Program-made: the position numbers and the translations under genes | Shown: piece by piece, positions 1 to 17,944 of the stretch | Position numbering within the stretch: the stretch's first letter is position 1 | How the letters are laid out: each line of letters starts with the position of its first letter | From: a virus | Lineage: Duplodnaviria; Heunggongvirae; Uroviricota; Caudoviricetes | Reading direction: 5' to 3' (one strand) | Virus record (IMG/VR): IMGVR_UViG_2541047903_000002 | DNA: 23,450 nucleotides | The notes under the pieces: generated by a model | Told to the model about the DNA's origin: nothing | Databases searched by the model: none | Seen by the model: the letters and a program-made list of their open reading frames with translations, nothing else

Positions 1-944
1 CTATGCTGTTTTGATATCTACGATAATCCAGTCTTTACCACGATCATCATTGTATCGGTCGGTCATTTTTCTGGATTTATGACCTAACAACTTTTGCGTA
101 TCCAGACCCTGTTCCCGATATAACCGTTCTGACAGAGATCGCTGCTCATGAAATGTGGGCGCAGTTCCTGGCTCCCATTTTATGCCACATTTTTCCCTGG
201 CCTTTTTAAAAGCCGTTGTAAGAGTATTTGCAGACACCTGGTCTCCTCTGTTTGCTTGAGAGGTAGTGTGACGGTAATGGACCAGATATTTACTAACAAC
301 AGCATCCCTGCACTGAGATATAACTTCACGAAGGGTAATATTCAGAGCATCGCATTTCAGGTTAAGCGGAATAGCAAGTTTTGAACCGGTTTTTTCCTGA
401 GTAATGTGCAACATGTCGTCCCAGATATCAGAGAATTTCAAATTGCAGATATCGCCTAAACGTTGTCCAGTGACAAGAGCAAGTAGCATCCCGCATTTTA
501 AATAGGGCTGCCGTCTGCTTACGCTGTCAAATATTGCCTGCCATTCGGGCAGTGATAATCTTTGGCGGTTTACTCGATTTCGCGGTTGTTTTGTTGCCTG
601 CGCTGGGTTAAATCCTGGCGGAACATGTCCTGCGTGTTGTGCTTCTTTGAAGACGTCGATCAACACCATTCTCACGACTTGCGCCATCCTGTTATGACCT
701 TCAGCCTTTACAGCATCAATTATTTCGGCAATATCAAGTGCGGTAATATCCTTGAGGTGTTGCATTCCACAATGCTCACGGAAAAGACGAATGGGTTTGC
801 CTTTTTGCCGATAGGAGTTGGGTCTTAGTTCATTATGTTGCAGCCTGTCCTCCTGGATAGAAATATATTTATCAAGCCATTCTGTCACCGTAATGTCTGA
901 GCGCCTGCCTTTCATTCTTTCTAGACGCTCATTGACGCTTAATA
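1..944 (-). pseudogene. int: Lambda-family tyrosine integrase, C-terminal core-binding and catalytic part, separated from its N-terminus by IS10
   Basis: 304-aa ORF (1..915) ends with a lambda-Int-like C-terminus (HKSRKMTDRYNDDRG...). Frame stays open up to the IS10 junction at 944 and is in phase with the N-terminal fragment at 2283..2481. Confidence 0.85.
936..944. repeat. Left copy of the 9-bp target-site duplication (CGCTTAATA) flanking IS10
   Basis: Identical 9-mer read directly on both sides of the IS10 ends. Confidence 0.8.
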
Positions 945-989
945 CTGATGAATCCCCTAATGATTTTTATCAAAATCATTAAGTTAAGG

Positions 990-1059
990 TAGATACACAT
1001 CTTGTCATATGATCAAATGGTTTCGCCAAAAATCAATAATCAGACAACAAAATGTGCGA
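990..1059 (-). ncRNA. IS10 RNA-OUT antisense RNA (position inferred from the known IS10 layout)
   Basis: Established IS10 organisation: pOUT transcript is complementary to the 5' end of the transposase mRNA. Placement relative to the tnp ATG at 1052 is inferred, not read as a defined transcript. Confidence 0.4.
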
Positions 1060-2260
1060 ACTCGATATTTTACACGACTCTCTTTACCAATTCTGCCCCG
1101 AATTACACTTAAAACGACTCAACAGCTTAACGTTGGCTTGCCACGCCTTACTTGACTGTAAAACTCTCACTCTTACCGAACTTGGCCGTAACCTGCCAAC
1201 CAAAGCGAGAACAAAACATAACATCAAACGAATCGACCGATTGTTAGGTAATCGTCACCTCCACAAAGAGCGACTCGCTGTATACCGTTGGCATGCTAGC
1301 TTTATCTGTTCGGGCAATACGATGCCCATTGTACTTGTTGACTGGTCTGATATCCGTGAGCAAAAACGGCTTATGGTATTGCGAGCTTCAGTCGCACTAC
1401 ACGGTCGTTCTGTTACTCTTTATGAGAAAGCGTTCCCGCTTTCAGAGCAATGTTCAAAGAAAGCTCATGACCAATTTCTAGCCGACCTTGCGAGCATTCT
1501 ACCGAGTAACACCACACCGCTCATTGTCAGTGATGCTGGCTTTAAAGTGCCATGGTATAAATCCGTTGAGAAGCTGGGTTGGTACTGGTTAAGTCGAGTA
1601 AGAGGAAAAGTACAATATGCAGACCTAGGAGCGGAAAACTGGAAACCTATCAGCAACTTACATGATATGTCATCTAGTCACTCAAAGACTTTAGGCTATA
1701 AGAGGCTGACTAAAAGCAATCCAATCTCATGCCAAATTCTATTGTATAAATCTCGCTCTAAAGGCCGAAAAAATCAGCGCTCGACACGGACTCATTGTCA
1801 CCACCCGTCACCTAAAATCTACTCAGCGTCGGCAAAGGAGCCATGGATTCTAGCAACTAACTTACCTGTTGAAATTCGAACACCCAAACAACTTGTTAAT
1901 ATCTATTCGAAGCGAATGCAGATTGAAGAAACCTTCCGAGACTTGAAAAGTCCTGCCTACGGACTAGGCCTACGCCATAGCCGAACGAGCAGCTCAGAGC
2001 GTTTTGATATCATGCTGCTAATCGCCCTGATGCTTCAACTAACATGTTGGCTTGCGGGCGTTCATGCTCAGAAACAAGGTTGGGACAAGCACTTCCAGGC
2101 TAACACAGTCAGAAATCGAAACGTACTCTCAACAGTTCGCTTAGGCATGGAAGTTTTGCGGCATTCTGGCTACACAATAACAAGGGAAGACTCACTCGTG
2201 GCTGCAACCCTGCTTACTCAAAATCTATTCACACATGGTTACGTTTTGGGGAAATTATGA
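1052..2260 (+). CDS. IS10 transposase
   Basis: 402-aa ORF MCELDILHDSLYQFCPELHLKRLNSLTLACHALLDCKTLTLTELGRNLPTKARTKHNIKRIDRLLGNRHLH... matches the IS10/Tn10 transposase as I recall it. Confidence 0.9.
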   Translation: MCELDILHDSLYQFCPELHLKRLNSLTLACHALLDCKTLTLTELGRNLPTKARTKHNIKRIDRLLGNRHLHKERLAVYRWHASFICSGNTMPIVLVDWSDIREQKRLMVLRASVALHGRSVTLYEKAFPLSEQCSKKAHDQFLADLASILPSNTTPLIVSDAGFKVPWYKSVEKLGWYWLSRVRGKVQYADLGAENWKPISNLHDMSSSHSKTLGYKRLTKSNPISCQILLYKSRSKGRKNQRSTRTHCHHPSPKIYSASAKEPWILATNLPVEIRTPKQLVNIYSKRMQIEETFRDLKSPAYGLGLRHSRTSSSERFDIMLLIALMLQLTCWLAGVHAQKQGWDKHFQANTVRNRNVLSTVRLGMEVLRHSGYTITREDSLVAATLLTQNLFTHGYVLGKL

Positions 2261-2273
2261 GGGGATCTCTCAG

Positions 2274-2282
2274 CGCTTAATA
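2274..2282. repeat. Right copy of the 9-bp target-site duplication (CGCTTAATA)
   Basis: Same 9-mer as 936..944, immediately after the IS10 inner end. Confidence 0.8.
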
Positions 2283-2481
2283 TTTGTCGGGTACGTTGTT
2301 CAGCAATAATGGTATTTGCTTCAGTAGCAACTTGTTTTGCTTCATTCTCATCAGTTCCTAAGCTATGAAAACGACCGGATAGTGGATGTTTGTATTGCCA
2401 ATATACCTTTCCGGTTCGCTTATCTAATTTGCAATATAAATTGGGTATAGAGATTTTGTGAGATCGGGGTCTAGCAGCCAT
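2283..2481 (-). pseudogene. int: Integrase N-terminal (arm-binding) fragment, cut off by IS10
   Basis: MAARPRSHKISIPNLYCKLDKRTGKVYWQYKHPLSG... resembles the lambda Int N-terminus. Removing IS10 plus one duplication copy restores a continuous 380-codon frame. Confidence 0.8.
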
Positions 2482-2707
2482 CAGCGATTATCCGTTGGAG
2501 TTTTGGGTTTGCGTTTATTGGGAGTTGCGGTTCTGCAAGCGTTCCTACAAAACGGGAATTTCGGTCAATCATCCAGTAGCGACCAACTTTTATAGCGGGT
2601 GGGGCCATCATTTTCCCTTGCGCGTATTTTTTCAGAACTCGCTCACTTGGTGCTAAGTCCCCAAATTCTTCTTTAGCCCAGTCCTGTAAAGTGATTAGTC
2701 GAGACAT
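2471..2707 (-). CDS. xis: Excisionase
   Basis: 78 aa, MSRLITLQDW... resembles lambda Xis (MYLTLQEW...); its 3' end overlaps the int start, the usual xis-int arrangement. Confidence 0.7.
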   Translation of the reverse strand: MSRLITLQDWAKEEFGDLAPSERVLKKYAQGKMMAPPAIKVGRYWMIDRNSRFVGTLAEPQLPINANPKLQRIIADGC

Positions 2708-2846
2708 TTGTCCTCCTCTTAGCTGCTGAGGGAGTTTGTGACCGATATATCTGACATGATATTAAGCTCATGGCAGGTACATCTCTTGACTGGTCATAGA
2801 GATAAATTTAATGCTGAGAAATGCAGTATTGAATTTATCAATTTTT

Positions 2847-3086
2847 CTATTTCCTGCGTATGGCACGTAACTTCTTAATGTGTTCTGCTGTTTCGATCTC
2901 TTCAGCTATCCGATCTGCGTCAGCTTTATTCACAGGTTCAAAGTCATGATTAAAGCGGAACATGCTGGCGATACATGTTCTGCCTTTTCGGATGTAGTGA
3001 ACTTTGTTGTGAGTGGAACGCAGGATTTTGCAGGGAGTGCCGTGGTGGTCGACGTACCAGGTGTTAGGGTAAATCACTCTGAACAT
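2847..3086 (-). CDS. Hypothetical small phage protein
   Basis: 79-aa ORF in the early-left operon orientation; no motif recognised. Confidence 0.4.
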   Translation of the reverse strand: MFRVIYPNTWYVDHHGTPCKILRSTHNKVHYIRKGRTCIASMFRFNHDFEPVNKADADRIAEEIETAEHIKKLRAIRRK

Positions 3087-3111
3087 TCTTGACCTTGTGT
3101 TGTGCGGATTG

Positions 3112-3396
3112 TTATTCAGTGCCGATATTTACCTTTATCGCGTATACCTTTACCGGTTTATCACCGAAGTGCGGATGTGTGATTGTCTTCACTTCATATC
3201 CGTCATACGGAACATCAACTCTGCGGCTGGAATCGTCGCGCTTCGGATATCCCTTTGTGATAATCAGGCGGTCATGCTTACGGTTAACGAGGCGCTTTTT
3301 CCAGTAGTCATTACACAGGCGATACTCTTCCGTTTTCTCTCCGCGAATCATGGCATCGAAGTATTCACCTTTAACGGCAAGTTGCAGGTTAGCCAC
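3112..3396 (-). CDS. ASCH-like (PUA-like) domain protein, putative
   Basis: G-E-K-T-E-E-Y-R matches the ASCH G-x-K-x-x-x-x-R signature. Start moved in frame to a GTG preceded by AAGGAG, just after the upstream stop; the track start at 3480 would overlap the upstream gene by about 90 nt. Confidence 0.45.
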   Translation of the reverse strand: MANLQLAVKGEYFDAMIRGEKTEEYRLCNDYWKKRLVNRKHDRLIITKGYPKRDDSSRRVDVPYDGYEVKTITHPHFGDKPVKVYAIKVNIGTE

Positions 3397-4129
3397 GGTT
3401 AACTCCTTGCTGTGTGGCGTCGAGTAATAAATCCCACAACCGCTGAGAGCAATTTCCGCATGTACAGCGTTGACCCACAACGTTTATCGCGTTGCTGATT
3501 TCCGGCGTTACCTGTTTAGGAACCATAACCCAACCATCCGGAGTTACCGGAAGCGAGAACGGCAGCACATCTCTGTGAACAAGTTTTTGCTGTGACAGGT
3601 TATCCAGAACTTTCTGTACTGCTGCATCACCGAATACACCAAGCGCATCTGCCATAACTCCTACAACCTGATAAGCCTCAGCGCATACCGTGGATAAACC
3701 ATCCGGAATTACCGGAGAGTTGCCGGGTTCTTTAATGTGCAAGCGAGGCTCACCATCTTTTGGCTCAGGCCACTGGCGCTCCATGTTGATCTTCAATTTA
3801 TCTTCCATAGCAACGGTAATTTCAGCATCGCTGATGCCAGCACGGCGCTGTGCATCCCACAACAGAAACTGCATATCAGCCCACTCGCTAAGATCGTCTG
3901 GTTCGGCTGCGGCTTCCAGTGCCTCTTTTGAGAGGTGTTTCAGTGGACCAATGGGGCCAACGCAGCCAAATGTGGAGTCAGACCATTTGGCATGCTCGTG
4001 GCGAATCTGTTCGCGTTCCAGTGATGCCAGTGCAATTCGTGCTAGTTCCATTTGTTCGCCACGAGTAAGCCCGTTTTCAAGCGGATTTTTAATGAACAAT
4101 TCAATACGTTCTTTGGTAATAGTGGTCAT
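3389..4129 (-). CDS. Prophage protein, probably MazG-like dATP/dGTP pyrophosphohydrolase (DUF550) N-domain with a DUF551-like C-domain
   Basis: 246 aa; assignment by recollection of this common enterobacterial prophage family, not by search. Confidence 0.5.
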   Translation of the reverse strand: MTTITKERIELFIKNPLENGLTRGEQMELARIALASLEREQIRHEHAKWSDSTFGCVGPIGPLKHLSKEALEAAAEPDDLSEWADMQFLLWDAQRRAGISDAEITVAMEDKLKINMERQWPEPKDGEPRLHIKEPGNSPVIPDGLSTVCAEAYQVVGVMADALGVFGDAAVQKVLDNLSQQKLVHRDVLPFSLPVTPDGWVMVPKQVTPEISNAINVVGQRCTCGNCSQRLWDLLLDATQQGVNRG

Positions 4130-4335
4130 GTGTTAATCCTCAAAACTTTATGCCCGGGCGCAAAAGTACGTGTTTTGTCTTTGCTTATTCGCCACCCGTC
4201 TTTACGGGCCTCTTTTGCACAACCAGACCATGACGTACCGATATACTCACCGAAGTCTGGCACTGGATATACACCTTCCGTACACTGGCGACAATCACAA
4301 TAGAGATGCATGGTGTAACTTGCGGCAATAGCCAT
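4126..4335 (-). CDS. Small Cys-containing protein (possible zinc ribbon)
   Basis: MAIAASYTMHLYCDCRQCTEG...; stop overlaps the downstream start (ATGA); start placed at an internal ATG that overlaps the stop of an upstream reading frame. Confidence 0.4.
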   Translation of the reverse strand: MAIAASYTMHLYCDCRQCTEGVYPVPDFGEYIGTSWSGCAKEARKDGWRISKDKTRTFAPGHKVLRINT

Positions 4336-4508
4336 ATCACTCTCTTTTTCCCTGAAGCATGGCAGCGTGGCAGGCATCCTCTACGCCCTTAACTGCATCT
4401 GCGCAGTAGTTATAGCGATTGCATTCCACTAACTTCTGCCTGAGATTTTCAATTGCTTGCGCGACATCAGCCTGTATTTGAAGTGGTCAACAAAAACTGG
4501 CCACCGAG

Positions 4509-5656
<1,148 letters not shown>

Positions 5657-5864
5657 TATGGCACCTGTGTTGTTCTGAGGTGAGCATATCACCTCTGTTC
5701 AGGTGGCCAAATTCAGTAAACCACTTCACTTAAATAGTGGATTGCGGTAGTAAAGATTGTGCCTGTCTTTTAACCACATCAGGCTCGGTGGTTCTCGTGT
5801 ACCCCTACAACGAGAAATCGGATAAACTCTATTCACCCCTACAGAGAGCAAAAGAGAAACGCCG

Positions 5865-6446
5865 ATGAACAACTCATGGTGGCAGGAACTAATGCATTTT
5901 TTCCTGCAAGGAATGACACTTAAACAGTTGATTCATATGCTAATCATCCTGATCATATTGATTATTGTTATGCCGGTAAGCGTAAAAGAATGGATAAACC
6001 TGCATAGTCCAGAAATCCTTCCTCATTACTGGATGTATTACATCCTGTTGTTTTGCGTTAGCTATGTGCTTAACGGCGTTGTTAATTCCGCTTATCACGC
6101 TGTGACTGAAAGAATTGAGGTATTCGCTGCTCAGAAGCGCAAATCTAAAGAAGAAAAATATGTGCAAGATTTGTTTGATTCGTTAACTCTTGGAGAAAGA
6201 GCGTATTTGGCATTCGCTGTAGCCGCTAATAACCAGCTACAAACGGAAAAGGGCGCTCATGAATCAATTTCATTGCTCAAAAAAGGACTCCTCGTTCGAA
6301 GGCCTCCTGCTGTTGGATATCCTGATACCGACCGTTTCGTTATCCCTGAAAGCTATAGACATGAGTGCTACATTAGGTTTGCCGGGAAGGCAGACAGCCT
6401 TATGGATGAACTTATCGCTCAGGATAAGCATGGCAAAAACAAGTAA
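5865..6446 (+). CDS. sieB: Putative superinfection-exclusion protein (SieB-like), membrane protein
   Basis: 193 aa with a hydrophobic N-terminal region (LIHMLIILIILIIVMPV, YILLFCVSYVLNGVV); divergent from and adjacent to N, in an AT-rich segment. Call is by position and composition. Confidence 0.5.
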   Translation: MNNSWWQELMHFFLQGMTLKQLIHMLIILIILIIVMPVSVKEWINLHSPEILPHYWMYYILLFCVSYVLNGVVNSAYHAVTERIEVFAAQKRKSKEEKYVQDLFDSLTLGERAYLAFAVAANNQLQTEKGAHESISLLKKGLLVRRPPAVGYPDTDRFVIPESYRHECYIRFAGKADSLMDELIAQDKHGKNK

Positions 6447-6462
6447 TTAGCAAATGAATTTA

Positions 6463-6735
6463 TCATCTCGCCGTCAGTTGTTTTGATTTCCGGTAGCCTG
6501 CCGCGTAAAGAGCTACGTTCGGAAGACAAGTTGAACCTTCATATTTTCTGGTCAACGTTGTCAGAGTTATCACTTCTGCTCTCATTGCTGGTTTGAGCTT
6601 GCATTGCAAGACCACTCGTGAAGGGGTTGGCCTGTGTAGCTTGTCGGAGCTGATCGCCTCCTGACTTTGCAGATTTGCGCGACGAGCTCTACGGCGAGAA
6701 GCTGCGGTGCCTTTAAATTCTGTTTTTCTGGACAT
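6463..6735 (-). CDS. N: N-type transcription antiterminator
   Basis: Arginine-rich motif GTAASRRRARRANLQ near the N-terminus; C-terminus VALYAAGYRKSKQLTAR resembles P22 gp24; GGGAGG Shine-Dalgarno before the ATG at 6735. Confidence 0.8.
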   Translation of the reverse strand: MSRKTEFKGTAASRRRARRANLQSQEAISSDKLHRPTPSRVVLQCKLKPAMRAEVITLTTLTRKYEGSTCLPNVALYAAGYRKSKQLTAR

Positions 6736-6834
6736 GGATTCCTCCCGAATAAACTTTGGCGATGCAATCTCGAAGCTCCTCCTGAGACGGTTGCTTCGGC
6801 ATTGCATCCCACAGCTTATGTGGTTGGGTGATCT

Positions 6835-6878
6835 GGCTTTTCAGCCACGTAGTCGAGAGTCGACGTTGTTTAAAGAGC
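6835..6878 (-). promoter_or_regulatory. nutL: boxA-like GCTCTTTAA plus boxB hairpin GGCUGAAAAGCC
   Basis: Read on the minus strand between pL and N; same boxA - about 23 nt - boxB layout as the site after cro. Confidence 0.6.
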
Positions 6879-6924
6879 CTGCCAGTCTGTTCCATTTGGC
6901 TTCCAGCGTCCTGCTGACGGTTAA

Positions 6925-6953
6925 ATAGTACGATATGTACTTTACAAGATCAA
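6925..6953 (-). promoter_or_regulatory. Candidate pL (-35 TTGATC, 17-bp spacer, -10 TACTAT) with an overlapping palindromic operator AGTACGATATGTACT
   Basis: Hexamers and palindrome read directly on the minus strand upstream of nutL. Confidence 0.5.
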
Positions 6954-7140
6954 TACAATTTGTTGTAAGTTGGCGTGGTTTTTTATAACGCTTTGTATTT
7001 AATAGTGTTGTTTTTTAGCGTGGATGTATTGCCTCGGCGATGTAAGGAGAGATCAGAATTGCGTGGTTTAGTGGGTTGCATCTATTTATTTTTCAATAAA
7101 TATAATTGGTTATGTGTTTTTAGGTGGGCGAACGTGAGGC

Positions 7141-7166
7141 AAAGAAAACCCGGCGCTGAGGCCGGG
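7141..7166 (-). terminator. Intrinsic terminator ending the cI-linked operon
   Basis: Minus-strand hairpin CCCGGC-CTCAGC-GCCGGG followed by TTTTCTTT, directly after the 250-aa gene. Confidence 0.6.
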
Positions 7167-7171
7167 TTGTA

Positions 7172-7924
7172 TTATGCTGCAAGTCTCTTAACCCAAGTCT
7201 CTCTTTTGGAGAATGGTAGAACTTGGCTTGATTCATGGAAGAGTAAGGAGAGTTGTTGCATTTGATCACCAATTGCTTCGCTGTCTATAACAACAAATCT
7301 GTTGTTATACTCCTCACTTGAAGCTTTAAGATCAATTAGTTTCCCAAGCAATGAGTAAGCACTATTCCAGCTTCCTCCGTGTTTCACGCTTGATGTAAAA
7401 ACGTATTTAGGTATGTCGGTTTTTATTGTTACAGGGACGGTAATTTGATGTCCACTCAAGCCATATACGTTTTCACGAAGAGAAAGTGCGTCTCTAAGCT
7501 CTGTGTGATATAGATAATCAATAACCATACTTTCAAACTTTTCAGCTTGAACTGGCTGATACCAGTCTAACGACAAAGTTGATGCGAGTATACCAGCTCT
7601 AATTATGTTCGATGTAATCGCACCGACATCCTTTTCTGTTGCCCAAGCAATGATTTCTCCTCGAGCATTGAGTTCTGCGCCTTCTTTAAGCAGTAATTGT
7701 CGTATCTCATCAAGTCGTTTTTTGGTAAGCGAGATCCCTCTTGCCTCCATATTCATTAAGGCATCGCATCTGTCACTAACTAAATACCTACCATTGACTT
7801 CACGGATAAAGGCACCGACATGCTCTCCATCATCACAGTAAGTGAATGGACTGATAATTCTCAAGGTCTTGCCTATTGGATGGCATTCGAAACCTAGTTG
7901 TGAGATCACTGTTGAGCACATCAT
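7172..7924 (-). CDS. Hypothetical protein, second gene of the cI-linked cassette
   Basis: 250-aa ORF; start ATG overlaps the stop of the upstream gene (ATGA); AT-rich; no family recognised. Confidence 0.7.
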   Translation of the reverse strand: MMCSTVISQLGFECHPIGKTLRIISPFTYCDDGEHVGAFIREVNGRYLVSDRCDALMNMEARGISLTKKRLDEIRQLLLKEGAELNARGEIIAWATEKDVGAITSNIIRAGILASTLSLDWYQPVQAEKFESMVIDYLYHTELRDALSLRENVYGLSGHQITVPVTIKTDIPKYVFTSSVKHGGSWNSAYSLLGKLIDLKASSEEYNNRFVVIDSEAIGDQMQQLSLLFHESSQVLPFSKRETWVKRLAA

Positions 7925-8478
7925 ATTCCAAACCCCATTTGCCCCGACTCATCTTCAAGCGGTAAAGGTATTCTCCCAGAGTAAGTTATGTTCAGATGTT
8001 TACAGAAGTAATTCCAATACCCTACCAGGTCATCTGGGTTTATGTCATCTTCGATTGGAAACGCTATTCTATCACTATAGTATCCAGCTTCTTCATAGTA
8101 TACATGGTAGTGAGCACCGTAAATGATATCTTGGTACTTCGGATGATCGACCTTGTAACTATTCGTGTGTTTGTCAAAGTGATAGGTATCTACCGCGAAA
8201 ACCCTCTTGTTATGATAGAAAGCAATAATATTTATTTTAGGGTAAGAAATCGGGTCATCAGGTTCTGAATCCTGATCTGGTTTCCATTTCAGTTCAAACT
8301 TTAGCCCTTGTATAGGTATACAATCCTCATCCAAGGGGATGATATGGGCTTGTAGCCACATATCAGAGCGACTTGGTTTCTGTTTCCATTTAACGCCAGA
8401 AAAGTTAACTATTTTTTTACAATAAAGTACTTTATCAACTTCTACTTGGCTTGGCTGATAATCATCTATTTTTGCCAA
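7921..8478 (-). CDS. Hypothetical protein, first gene of the cI-linked cassette
   Basis: 185-aa ORF starting 39 nt after the cI stop (track start is TTG; true start uncertain); acidic, Tyr/His-rich C-terminal half; AT-rich. Confidence 0.65.
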   Translation of the reverse strand: MAKIDDYQPSQVEVDKVLYCKKIVNFSGVKWKQKPSRSDMWLQAHIIPLDEDCIPIQGLKFELKWKPDQDSEPDDPISYPKINIIAFYHNKRVFAVDTYHFDKHTNSYKVDHPKYQDIIYGAHYHVYYEEAGYYSDRIAFPIEDDINPDDLVGYWNYFCKHLNITYSGRIPLPLEDESGQMGFGI

Positions 8479-8517
8479 TGTTTACCGCCCTGTAAATTGT
8501 AGATAAAAGTGGTTTCA

Positions 8518-9177
8518 TCACCCAAACGTCTCTTCAGGCCATTGGCTGGCGATAACTTTCCCCACAACGGAACAACTCTCATTGCATGGGATCATTGGGT
8601 ATTGTGGGTTTAGTGGCTGTAGAAACACCTGACCGCTATCCCTGATCAGTTTCTTGAAGGTAAATTCATCACCACCAAGTCTGGCTATGCAGAAATCGCC
8701 GGGCTCAACAGCTTGCTCAGGGTCAACCAGAATTAACATCCCGTCAGGAAAGCTGGGTTTGGAACCTGTTGGTGCGGTCATTGAGTTACCTTCAACCTCA
8801 AGCCAGAATGCAGAGTCACTGGCTTTTTTGGTTGTGCTTACCAATCTCTCCGCATCGCCTTTGGTAAAGGTTCTGAGTTCTGGAGAGAACATCCCAGCCT
8901 GAACATGAGAAAAAACAGGGTACTCATATTGTTTTTTAACTGGGGCCGATGAGTATTCGCCAACAGGTGAAAATGTCCCGTCGTGGTTGAATGATATGTT
9001 ATCAATACCAAGGTATTTAAACACCACACCAATATCACTAAGAGATGGATGACGAGATCCGCGCAACCAGTGTCCAATCCCACCCTGCGTCATACCTAGC
9101 TCTTCGGCTAACTTCTCTTGAGTTATGCCGAGCTCTTTCATTCTGGATCTAGCCAGTTCATACCATTTCATTTTCAT
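8518..9177 (-). CDS. cI: CI-type prophage repressor with a lambda-type C-terminal domain
   Basis: C-terminal about 135 aa ([21 protein letters not shown]...QWPEETFG) match lambda CI; N-terminal HTH domain is different. Start at M-K-M-K-W-Y (9177 or 9171). Confidence 0.85.
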
Positions 9178-9288
9178 GTCCTTATTATTACGCTCTGTAC
9201 TGGAACCATCCATGCACAATGTGTATTTTTACTTGTATTCGCAAAGTACATATTGTATTTTTTTATTCGTGTTTACTATGGAGGGCAT
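9178..9288. promoter_or_regulatory. Right operator/promoter region between cI and cro (pRM/pR), with imperfect palindromes
   Basis: AAGTACATATTGTAT resembles the palindrome at pL; CACAATGTG and a GGAGGG Shine-Dalgarno before cro also present. Confidence 0.55.
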
Positions 9289-9504
9289 ATGAGCAACCTA
9301 CGAAAATATCGAGAGTCACTGAATATCTCTCAAACAACACTTGCTAAGGCAGTTGGATGCACACAGGGAGCTATCGGACATTGGGAATCTGGTCGTCGCT
9401 TCCCAGACCTTAAAACATGCCGTGCTCTTGTTGCGTGCCTAAACAAGTTAGGCGCAAAAGTCAGTCTTGATGACGTGTTCCCGCCGGAACACAAAGCCGC
9501 TTAA
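9289..9504 (+). CDS. cro: Cro-type HTH repressor
   Basis: 71 aa MSNLRKYRESLNISQTTLAKAVGCTQGAIGHWESG...; the HTH (TQGAIGHW) is close to that of the adjacent repressor (TQGGIGHW). Confidence 0.8.
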   Translation: MSNLRKYRESLNISQTTLAKAVGCTQGAIGHWESGRRFPDLKTCRALVACLNKLGAKVSLDDVFPPEHKAA

Positions 9505-9514
9505 TAAGCGGATC

Positions 9515-9560
9515 CGCTCTTTGTAACAACGGACATTCGTCCTACGTCGCTGAAAAGCGA
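9515..9560 (+). promoter_or_regulatory. nutR: boxA CGCTCTTTG plus boxB hairpin TCGCUGAAAAGCGA
   Basis: Read directly; spacer between boxA and boxB is nearly identical to that of nutL. Confidence 0.6.
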
Positions 9561-9645
9561 GTTCCAAGATATCTGACCAACTAAGGCCATATGCGTTTCC
9601 ACGCATACCTTTCAACTAACTATTCACTATTGGAAATCTTAAGAA

Positions 9646-9942
9646 ATGGAAAGAACAAGTTACAGCAAACTATCACAGCGTGACGTTGATCGCGCAGAAA
9701 CAGATTTACTTATCAATCTGTCAGCTATTACCCAGCGCGGTCTGGCAAAGATGATTGGCTGTCATGAATCGAAGATAAGCAGAACGGACTGGAGATTTAT
9801 TGCTTCGGTCTTGTGTGCTTTCGGAATGGCATCAGACATCAGTCCGATTAGCAGGGCTTTTAAGTATGCGCTTGATGGACTCACCAATAAAAAACGCCCG
9901 GCGGCAACCGAGCGTTCTGAACAAATCCAGATGGAATTCTGA
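9646..9942 (+). CDS. cII: CII transcriptional activator
   Basis: C-terminus TNKKRPAATERSEQIQMEF matches lambda CII. Confidence 0.9.
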   Translation: MERTSYSKLSQRDVDRAETDLLINLSAITQRGLAKMIGCHESKISRTDWRFIASVLCAFGMASDISPISRAFKYALDGLTNKKRPAATERSEQIQMEF

Positions 9943-9963
9943 GGTCATTACTGGATCAATCCA
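9887..9963 (-). ncRNA. oop: oop-like antisense RNA
   Basis: Minus strand matches the lambda oop RNA as I recall it, including the terminator ...CGGUUGCCGCCGGGCGUUUUUUAUU; antisense to the cII 3' end. Confidence 0.55.
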
Positions 9964-9974
9964 CAGGAGTCATT

Positions 9975-10874
9975 ATGACAAATACAGCAAAAATACTCAA
10001 CTTCTGCAGAGGTAACTTTGCCAAACAGGAGCGTAATGTGGCAGATCTCGATGATGGTTACGCCAGACTATCAAATATGCTGCTTGAGGCTTATTCAGGC
10101 GCAGATCTGACCAAGCGACAGTTTAAAGTGCTGCTTGCCATTCTGCGTAAAACCTATGGATGGAATAAACCAATGGACAGAATCACCGATTCTCAACTTA
10201 GCGAGATTACAAAGTTACCCGTCAAACGGTGCAATGAAGCCAAGTTAGAACTCGTCAGAATGAATATTATCAAGCAGCAAGGCGGCATGTTTGGACCAAA
10301 TAAAAACATCTCAGAATGGTGTATCCCTCAAAACGAGGGAAAATCCCCTAAAACGAGGGATAAAACATCCCTCAAATTGGGGGATTGCTATCCCTCAAAA
10401 CAGGGGGACACAAAAGACACTATTACAAAAGAAAAAAGAAAAGATTATTCGTCAGAGAATTCTGGCGAATCCTCTGACCAGCCAGAAAACGACCTTTCTG
10501 TGGTGAAACCGGATGCTGCAATTCAGAGCGGCAGCAAGTGGGGGACAGCAGAAGACCTGACCGCCGCAGAATGGATGTTTGACATGGTGAAGACCATCGC
10601 GCCATCAGCCAGAAAACCGAATTTTGCAGGGTGGGCTAACGATATCCGCCTGATGCGTGAACGTGACGGACGTAACCATCGCGACATGTGTGTACTGTTC
10701 CGCTGGGCATGCCAGGACAACTTCTGGTCCGGTAACGTGCTGAGCCCGGCCAAACTCCGCGACAAGTGGACCCAGCTCGAAATCAACCGTAACAAGCAAC
10801 AGGCAGGTGTGACAGCCTGCAAACCAAAACTCGACCTGACAAACACTGACTGGATTTACGGGGTGGATTTATGA
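9975..10874 (+). CDS. O: Replication initiator O
   Basis: 299 aa, near-identical to lambda O from memory (MTNTAKILNF...). Confidence 0.95.
   Translation: MTNTAKILNFCRGNFAKQERNVADLDDGYARLSNMLLEAYSGADLTKRQFKVLLAILRKTYGWNKPMDRITDSQLSEITKLPVKRCNEAKLELVRMNIIKQQGGMFGPNKNISEWCIPQNEGKSPKTRDKTSLKLGDCYPSKQGDTKDTITKEKRKDYSSENSGESSDQPENDLSVVKPDAAIQSGSKWGTAEDLTAAEWMFDMVKTIAPSARKPNFAGWANDIRLMRERDGRNHRDMCVLFRWACQDNFWSGNVLSPAKLRDKWTQLEINRNKQQAGVTACKPKLDLTNTDWIYGVDL
10323..10455. repeat. ori-lambda: four iterons plus AT-rich region inside O
   Basis: Four tandem TCCCTCAAAACGAGGGA-like repeats followed by ACAAAAGAAAAAAGAAAAG. Confidence 0.85.
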
Positions 10875-11572
10875 AAAACATCGCCGCACAGATGGTTAAT
10901 TTTGACCGTGAGCAGATGCGTCGGATCGCCAACAACATGCCGGAACAGTACGACGAAAAGCCGCAGGTACAGCAGGTAGCGCAGATCATCAACGGTGTGT
11001 TCAGCCAGTTACTGGCAACTTTCCCGGCGAGTCTGGCTAACCGTGACCAGAACGAACTGAACGAAATCCGCCGCCAGTGGGTTCTGGCTTTCCGGGAAAA
11101 CGGGATCACCACAATGGAACAGGTTAACGCAGGAATGCGCGTAGCCCGTCGGCAGAATCGACCATTTCTGCCATCACCCGGGCAGTTTGTTGCATGGTGC
11201 CGGGAAGAAGCATCCGTTATCGCCGGACTGCCAAACGTCAGCGAGCTGGTTGATATGGTTTACGAGTATTGCCGGAAGCGAGGCCTGTATCCGGATGCAG
11301 AGTCTTATCCGTGGAAATCGAACGCGCACTACTGGCTGGTTACCAACCTGTACCAGAACATGCGGGCCAATGCGCTGACTGACGCGGAATTACGACGCAA
11401 GGCTGCCGATGAACTGACCTGTATGACAGCGCGAATTAACCGTGGTGAGACGATACCTGAACCAGTAAAACAACTTCCTGTCATGGGCGGCAGACCTCTA
11501 AATCGTGTTCAGGCGCTGGCGAAGATCGCAGAAATTAAAGCTAAGTTAGGACTGAAAGGAGCAAGTGTATGA
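10871..11572 (+). CDS. P: Replication protein P (DnaB helicase loader)
   Basis: 233 aa, near-identical to lambda P from memory; ATGA overlap with O. Confidence 0.95.
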   Translation: MKNIAAQMVNFDREQMRRIANNMPEQYDEKPQVQQVAQIINGVFSQLLATFPASLANRDQNELNEIRRQWVLAFRENGITTMEQVNAGMRVARRQNRPFLPSPGQFVAWCREEASVIAGLPNVSELVDMVYEYCRKRGLYPDAESYPWKSNAHYWLVTNLYQNMRANALTDAELRRKAADELTCMTARINRGETIPEPVKQLPVMGGRPLNRVQALAKIAEIKAKLGLKGASV

Positions 11573-14777: not shown

Positions 14778-15860
14778 TTAGAACTGATAAACCAGACCTA
14801 CAGCGACGATGTCGTCGGTATCAATACCAGCTGTTTTGGTAAACTTACTATCGTCAATTAAGTTGATTTTGTAATCAACAAAAGTGGACATGTTTTTATT
14901 AAAGTAGTAAGTAGCACCGACATCGACATACTTGACTAAGTCTCGGTCACCATGAACACCAAGGTCTTTACCTTTTGACTGAAGGTAAGCAACAGATGGA
15001 CGCAGACCGAAGTCAAACTGATATTGTGCTACTGCTTCAAAGTTTTGTGCTTTGTTTGCAATATGGTTATTACCAAAAACGGTCATATTCTGAGTTTCAG
15101 AATATGTGGTAGCCAGATAGATATTGTTCGCATCATATTTCAGGCCTGCAGCCCATACTTCCGCATTTTTGCCGGAGGCATTGAATTTGCTCTTACCATA
15201 GGCGACCTGACCGTCAGTGCGATCTGATTTAGCATAGGTTGCACCCACGCCGAATCCTTCATACTCATAAGTAGTGGAGAAACCGAAACCATCACCATTG
15301 GCTTCAGTTACGTCAGTGCGGTCATTTTTACCCTGATACTGAGCAGCAAAGTTCAGGCCATCGACCAGACCAAAGAAGTCGTTGTTACGATAAGTTGCAA
15401 CACCAGTAGTGCGACCAGTCATGAACACATCTGTTTGGGTCCAGGTATCACCACCGAATTCTGGCAGAACGTCAGTCCACGCACCGATGTCGTATGCTAC
15501 ACCGTAGTTACGGCCGTAATCGATTGAGCCGTAATCACCAAATTTCAGGCCTGCAAATGCAAGACGGGTTTTGTCTTTGGAAGAACCTTGAGATTCAGCA
15601 CGGTTGCCTTTGAATTCATATTCCCACTGACCGAAACCAGTCAGTTGATCGTTGATTTGGGTTTCACCTTTGAAGCCAAGACGGGCATAAGTAGTATCAC
15701 CATCATCTGCATCATTAGAGGAGAAGTAGTGCTTGGCATTAACTTTCCCGTATAGATCCAGCTTGTTACTGTCTTTATTATAAATTTCAGCTGCCTGAGC
15801 AGACATCGCCATCAGTACTGATGCAGCTACAGCAGAAATTGCCACTGTTAATTTTTTCAT
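14778..15860 (-). CDS. nmpC: Outer-membrane porin of the OmpC/OmpF/NmpC family, apparently intact
   Basis: Signal peptide [23 protein letters not shown], porin-like beta-barrel sequence, C-terminal ...VGLVYQF. Confidence 0.9.
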
Positions 15861-17650: not shown

Positions 17651-17944
17651 TTATTGTGAGCAATACACACGCGCTTCCAGCGGAGTATAAATGCCTAAAG
17701 TAATAAAACCGAGCAATCCATTTACGAATGTTTGCTGGGTTTCTGTTTTAACAACATTTTCTGCACCACCACAAATTTTTGCTGCATCGACAGTTTTCTT
17801 CTGCCCAATTCCCGAAACGAAGAAATGATGGGTGATGGTTTCCTTTGGTGTTACTGCTGTAGGTTTGTTTCCAACAGTAAACGTCTGTTGAGCACATCCT
17901 GTAATAAGCATTGCCAGAGCGGCAGAAAACAACATTTTTTTCAT
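17651..17944 (-). CDS. bor: Bor lipoprotein (serum-resistance, Iss-like)
   Basis: MKKMLFSAALAMLITGCAQQTFTV... matches lambda Bor from memory. Confidence 0.85.
   Translation of the reverse strand: MKKMLFSAALAMLITGCAQQTFTVGNKPTAVTPKETITHHFFVSGIGQKKTVDAAKICGGAENVVKTETQQTFVNGLLGFITLGIYTPLEARVYCSQ

Follow-up and report, generated by a model that had tools for sequence, protein, structure and literature searches.

Integrase gene and insertion sequence at the left end of the prophage

The virus record IMGVR_UViG_2541047903_000002 (IMG/VR; Caudoviricetes) comprises 23,450 nucleotides (nt), and this whole stretch of DNA is referred to here as the window. Its first part carries the integrase gene int and the excisionase gene xis of a lambdoid prophage of Escherichia coli. 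The int gene is divided by a complete copy of the insertion sequence (IS) IS10, with a copy of the 9-bp target sequence at each junction. The features of the locus are as follows, with window coordinates, strand and basis (ORF, open reading frame; aa, amino acids).

1..944, minus strand: 3' part of int, from the second base of codon 67 to codon 380 (stop at 1-3), with the core-binding and catalytic domains (ORF, Pfam)
936..944, no strand: left copy of the 9-bp target-site duplication, CGCTTAATA, which is single-copy in empty-site alleles
945..2273, plus strand: complete IS10 of 1329 bp, IS10-Left sequence type, outside end at 945 and inside end at 2273 (identity to R100)
945..967, plus strand: outside-end terminal inverted repeat, identical to the R100 copy
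990..1059, minus strand: antisense RNA RNA-OUT; its promoter pOUT fires toward lower coordinates, into the 3' fragment of int (Rfam RF00240)
1052..2260, plus strand: IS10 transposase gene, intact, 402 aa (Pfam DDE_Tnp_1, E 1.5e-24; NCBIfam transpos_IS4_2)
2239..2481, minus strand: 5' part of int, read as an 80-aa ORF (ORF; Pfam Arm-DNA-bind_1 on the product)
2251..2273, plus strand: inside-end terminal inverted repeat with a GATC Dam site (reading of the sequence)
2274..2282, no strand: right copy of the 9-bp target-site duplication, CGCTTAATA (sequence check)
2471..2707, minus strand: excisionase gene xis, intact, 78 aa, overlapping the start of int by 11 nt (Pfam Exc, E 6.7e-6)

The direct repeat CGCTTAATA is exact at 936-944 and 2274-2282, as established both by a script and by reading of the letters, and the segment between the two copies (945-2273) measures exactly 1329 bp. 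Identity ends at the ninth base on both sides (A versus G leftward, C versus T rightward). Two pre-specified 9-mers would be identical by chance with a probability of 4^-9, about 4e-6. The one further occurrence of CGCTTAATA in the window, at 9498, is irrelevant to the insertion. The first-pass annotation, made from the letters of the window, had described identical 9-mers around a complete 1329-bp IS10, and its coordinates proved exact. IS10 is known for a 9-bp duplication and for target preferences described as NGCTNAGCN or NPuCNNNGPyN (PMC4574204). The duplication in the window has this length. The site fits four of the six positions of the NGCTNAGCN consensus, which makes it a weak site, and three of the four consensus positions of NPuCNNNGPyN as read from the sequence.

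The element starts with CTGATGAATCCCCTAATGATTTT at the outside end and finishes with GGGGATCTCTCAG at the inside end. As expected for a 1329-bp IS10, its inverted repeats are imperfect (outside CTGATGAATCCCC..., inside CTGAGAGATCCCC...), and the two termini agree at 4+7+2+4 positions of the first 23, as in IS10. GATC Dam sites are present in the pIN region and at the inside end. The single long ORF scores 402 bits against the NCBIfam IS4 family model (cut-off 152). RNA-OUT scores 97.3 bits against RF00240 (gathering threshold 41) over model positions 1-70 of 70, and it overlaps the transposase start near the outside end. A simple promoter scan missed both pIN and pOUT, and the orientation was set by the Rfam match to RNA-OUT.

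The IS is identical at 1329 of 1329 bases to positions 36132-37460 of R100 (NC_002134), the IS10 copy beside gltS/jemA. The tetD-proximal copy, IS10-Right, differs from it by 15 nt and 4 aa; six of these nucleotide differences lie in the first 107 bp, which cover the end, pIN and the RNA-IN/OUT region, and the amino acid changes are V266I, L381S, A389T and A398V (Right residue first). Because of its full identity to the gltS/jemA-side copy, the element in the window is of the IS10-Left sequence type. The distinction between Left and Right draws on the annotation of R100 and on the published RNA-IN sequence of IS10-Right (...CGCGAAAAAUC...CAAGAUG), with which the tetD-proximal copy agrees and the window does not. 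It also draws on the gene order of Tn10 (PMC5571418). IS10-Left of Tn10 in R100/NR1 has the same ends, 402-aa transposase, RNA-OUT region and 9-bp duplication as the window element, but it forms the left arm of Tn10 there, whereas the copy here is solitary and chromosomal. By rough counts of outside ends in complete E. coli genomes, the Right type occurs in about 1,975 replicons and the Left type in about 750. In about 319 E. coli replicons, IS10 outside ends are present but none is of the Right type, so solitary Left-type copies are not rare and do spread.

When the IS and one repeat are removed in silico, 1-944 joins 2283-2481 to give 1143 nt on the minus strand, which read as 380 codons and a stop with no internal stop. 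The rejoined product carries an arm-type DNA-binding domain at residues 1-71 (Pfam PF09003 Arm-DNA-bind_1, E 1.8e-28) and a catalytic domain at residues 200-367 (PF00589 Phage_integrase, E 7.8e-24). Its residues 5-378 align with the full-length lambda Int structure 1z1b (E 2.4e-55). All six catalytic positions, R-K-H-R-H-Y, are conserved against 1z1b; the motifs VTGQRLGD, EKTGSK, TFHEQRSL, LLGHKS and DRY correspond to lambda R212, K235, H308/R311, H333 and Y342. The int DNA is 100% identical to the gene for the annotated 380-aa site-specific integrase WP_000741334.1 of E. coli ATCC 25922. The proposal that the two fragments make up a 380-codon lambda-type Int, together with the in silico removal and alignment put forward to check it, is thus borne out by the open frame, the Pfam domains, the 1z1b alignment and the DNA identity.

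No single polypeptide in the window combines the arm and core domains, as the ORF is broken after codon 69 by 1338 bp; an uninterrupted int exists only after in silico removal of the IS or in other strains. The target 9-mer covers codons 67-70 and the break follows Ser69. Ser69/Val70 align with lambda Thr65/Ala66, in the linker that joins the arm-binding domain to the core-binding and catalytic part. On one side of the break, the 80-aa ORF consists of int codons 1-69, which encode the arm-type DNA-binding domain, and 11 IS-encoded residues; of its sequence, 2283-2481 and the repeat are native to int. On the other side, a 304-aa ORF begins at the first in-frame ATG (915-913), which is Met77. 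Residues 85-378 of Int align with the lambda Int fragment structures 1p7d/1z19, and the 304-aa ORF holds all of these lambda C75 structures.

The arm-binding, core-binding and catalytic layout is that of lambda Int (PDB 1z1b, 1z1g, 5j0n, 1p7d, 1ae9), and the overlapping xis-int gene pair is also shared with lambda. However, lambda Int has 356 aa against 380 aa here, with moderate similarity only, the lambda attB lies between gal and bio and not next to icd, and the Int here is split by an IS. The xis gene is annotated as excisionase WP_000088653.1 in ATCC 25922. Its adjacency to int and the location of the pair at a prophage end beside icd are as expected for a lambda-type Int.

Empty-site alleles and the origin of the insertion

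Dozens of complete E. coli genomes, including ATCC 25922, clone D i2/i14 and M16807, match window 1-944 plus 2274-3000 at 100% over an uninterrupted 1662 bp. This is the length expected of an empty site (3000 minus 1338, the IS and one repeat), and an empty site therefore exists in nature. The ATCC 25922 locus (L005) was used as the empty-site reference. In a BLAST comparison, window 1-944 corresponds to L005 3001-3944 and window 2274-4478 to L005 3936-6140; the overlap is the 9-bp duplication. The flanks are free of mutations against the empty-site alleles, as is the IS against R100.

In all related genomes icd lies 114 bp beyond the int stop, which places the start of the window at the left end of an icd-site lambdoid prophage; the window does not extend to the attachment site itself. 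The icd-adjacent prophage of ATCC 25922 and other B2 strains has int DNA that is 100% identical on either side of the IS, and it likewise neighbours icd on one side and xis and a DUF4222 gene on the other, but its WP_000741334.1 gene is uninterrupted. The int gene (at least 95% identity) is carried by 1,679 of 5,426 complete E. coli genomes, nearly always uninterrupted, and IS10 at the site seen in the window was found in none of the 5,426.

The interrupted allele is present in other records. Window 1-10915 equals scaffold KE701794.1 of GCA_000460515.1 (L013) with zero mismatches, and L013 also includes icd and the chromosomal flank. The junction-specific 80-aa ORF, which spans the right junction, is also found in GCA_025154475.1 and in two LIAN20-2 gut metagenome samples. 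The left junction is also found in GCA_000460515.1 and in L017 (ENA ERZ28665929, YOKO23-1 metagenome scaffold_334). With at least two public assemblies and several gut metagenomes carrying it, the allele marks a lineage, not one isolate. Its junction in independent samples indicates that it circulates in that lineage.

The exact duplication, together with an empty site whose flanks overlap by 9 bp, points to a simple transposition into int. The first-pass annotation had called the event simple and probably recent, and had named a comparison with related strains lacking the IS as a check. Such strains do carry the exact empty site with flanks 100% identical, and the first part of that description stands. 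The second holds only in a relative sense, given the same junction ORF in two assemblies and in gut metagenomes.

We consider it about 95% probable that an element of the IS10-Left type entered the int gene of the icd-adjacent lambdoid prophage by single transposition, with int split as a result. The host would have been a B2/ST73-like E. coli, a close relative of ATCC 25922, with the prophage beside icd. In it, an IS10 that was originally part of Tn10 would have moved by a single cut-and-paste event. A staggered 9-bp cut at CGCTTAATA, followed by fill-in, would have left the direct repeats, and the break after codon 69 would leave no single polypeptide bridging the arm and core sites. Int-dependent self-excision should then be lost, with Xis intact. 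Lambda-type recombination requires one Int polypeptide that bridges arm and core sites, and loss of excision is expected because the split Int cannot do so. As far as can be judged from this analysis, the prophage is probably locked in the chromosome, unable to excise by its own Int, as the first-pass annotation had proposed.

Several considerations weigh against this reading or its consequences. IS10-Left is reported to be inactive or only weakly active (PMC11148124, PMC5571418), and because of this it may have moved only with the help of transposase supplied by the IS10-Right of a co-resident Tn10. The prophage could also be served in trans by an Int of the same specificity from another locus in the genome, and int would be restored if IS10 were, as happens rarely, excised precisely. 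In addition, the source assembly is built from short reads, in which several IS10 copies could in principle have been collapsed into one consensus for the internal part of the IS. The structural reading of the insertion is contradicted by none of the observations. Judged from the sequence comparisons, the event is an ordinary one: both parts have 100% identical counterparts in the databases, and public assemblies already contain the allele.

Alternative explanations

The shared junction might also have arisen more than once, by independent insertions at a local IS10 hot spot, instead of going back to one ancestral event. The site preference of IS10 is strong (PMC4574204). In L017 (positions 1-62) the same left junction, CAG/TATTAAGCG, is followed by 53 bp of IS that are of the IS10-Right type; over about 10.9 kb of flanking chromosome, L017 and L013 show 11 differences, and in L007 three of 627 flanking positions differ. 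However, the L017 contig ends 53 bp into the repeat, where metagenome assemblers often pick the commonest IS variant. Its Right-type end may mean that IS10 entered this site a second time, independently, or may have been produced by assembly at the contig end. Six sites within int-xis match the NGCTNAGCN consensus better (5/6) than the target used (4/6), so the latter is not an obvious hot spot. The absence of IS10 from this site in the complete genomes, despite the 1,679 that carry int, also argues against repeated insertion. We regard this explanation as rather unlikely.

A second alternative concerns function and not origin. The 80-aa arm fragment, expressed from the native promoter, and the 304-aa fragment, expressed by read-through from pOUT, might form a split integrase with residual activity or interfere with related integrases. 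The activities proposed for such a split integrase are topoisomerase activity, Holliday-junction resolution and weak recombination in trans. The position of the break in the inter-domain linker (Ser69/Val70, lambda Thr65/Ala66) and the inclusion of the whole of the lambda C75 structures 1p7d/1z19 in the 304-aa ORF are in its favour. Lambda Int C65 keeps cleavage and topoisomerase activity. Moreover, RNA-OUT and pOUT are oriented into the 304-aa ORF, and a simple scan of 1-945 found no terminator-like site on the strand transcribed from pOUT. Transcripts from pOUT have been reported to run into neighbouring genes, at about 10% of the strength of lacUV5 (PMC9330008), and this read-out favours a split integrase. 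With pOUT facing the ORF, no terminator-like site and the reported read-out, the catalytic fragment could therefore be transcribed. On the other hand, RNA-OUT normally ends at nt 47 of IS10 (PMC5006887), so that read-out would concern a minority of transcripts. In the sequence upstream of the ATG at 915 (CTAGAAAGAATG) no recognisable Shine-Dalgarno motif could be read. The bridging of arm and core sites within one polypeptide, which att recombination requires in lambda, also speaks against it. From these sequence features, a functional split integrase appears unlikely.

An extended form of this idea holds that the two-piece integrase has a catalytic fragment made constitutively from the IS and that, with the many independent IS hits in this int/xis module, selection might act to ground a prophage that bears useful cargo (iss and an OmpC-like porin gene) while a recombinase fragment stays active; we consider this very improbable.

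The probability that IS10 is an artefact, the real int being intact and the IS having hopped from a cloning host of the DH10B type or been misplaced as a short-read repeat, is close to negligible, since the junctions were seen independently in several sources. IS10 is indeed well known to hop into cloned DNA (PMC4574204), the assembly that matches the window dates from 2013 and is at scaffold level, and L006 is chimeric across the IS, its left flank coming from another locus. However, the exact 9-bp duplication at both junctions is that of a real insertion, the data are whole-genome shotgun data with no cloning host involved, and the right junction (GCA_025154475.1 and two LIAN20-2 samples) and the left junction (the YOKO23-1 scaffold and GCA_000460515.1) recur independently.

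L006 (ENA ERZ28603290 scaffold_2387) has the correct right junction, unrelated sequence to the left of the IS and one Right-type base at IS position 107. Reading metagenome scaffolds across the IS was rejected because L006 is chimeric across the IS10 repeat.

Other disruptions, prophage decay and significance

The int/xis module of the icd-site prophage has been disrupted independently at least eight times (L001, L002, L004, L009-L012, L016, L018), by IS2, IS1, ISEc52, an IS3-family element, IS10 and deletions, in a list that is partly biased because the 304-aa ORF as query recovers N-terminal events only. The cases with their position and source are as follows.

IS2 in int: MS1657, VTB96929v
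Mosaic IS10 plus IS3-family element in int: RM10410
IS10-Right in xis: isolate 2-101
IS1 and ISEc52 within the first 20 int codons: L011, L012
Deletions ending at int codons 38 and 74: L009/L016 and L010/L018

These disruptions share the gene and the outcome with the window, but the elements, positions and duplications differ (TGCTAAGTC in xis, AGTTGGGTC in int), and all are independent events. Only two records of complete genomes covered more than 80% of the query, isolate 2-101 and RM10410, and neither has the allele of the window: the IS10 of the former lies in xis, and that of the latter lies in int but 120 bp further in. The 304-aa ORF fails as a marker of disruption, as it is also called in int loci that are 100% intact (L014, L015).

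The int IS10 of RM10410 (L002, NZ_CP042350.1, 3470-4798) is a mosaic of Left and Right diagnostic bases (RRRRRRLLLLRRRRR), a pattern suggesting that IS10 copies have recombined or undergone gene conversion. The target sequence duplicated there, AGTTGGGTC, is a poor fit to the IS10 consensus.

A second IS lies further into the window. A single ISEc52 (IS3 family, 1250 bp) occupies 4479-5728 and is flanked by sequence corresponding to L005 6140 on the left and 12789 on the right; about 6.65 kb is therefore missing. The missing block holds ea22, a traR-like gene, exo, bet, gam, kil, cIII and ral. The ATCC 25922 prophage has two ISEc52 copies at other positions, which flank part of this block, and it keeps exo-bet-gam-kil-cIII-ral. 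The arrangement suggests that the loss arose by IS-mediated adjacent deletion or by recombination between IS copies. In the genes for immunity, replication, Q, lysis and terminase/portal, the window and ATCC 25922 share 99.97% identity. This prophage fits the usual picture of decay by IS activity.

Annotation transfer from ATCC 25922 places two cargo genes on the minus strand, an OmpC-like porin gene at about 14778-15860 and iss, for the increased serum survival lipoprotein, at about 17651-17944.

The structure of the locus explains the output of gene callers, which give a 304-aa "integrase", an 80-aa "Arm DNA-binding" ORF and a transposase. The allele can serve as a lineage marker, by junction polymerase chain reaction or by a k-mer such as CATTGACGCTTAATACTGATGAATCCCC, for a sublineage related to ATCC 25922. 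The IS10-Left identity of the element means that the "defective" arm of Tn10 exists in nature as a solitary element. If the prophage is locked in, its porin and iss cargo would be retained. The probable lock-in thus bears on predictions of the inducibility of this prophage, of the lateral spread of its iss and porin cargo, and of its replication in situ after induction.

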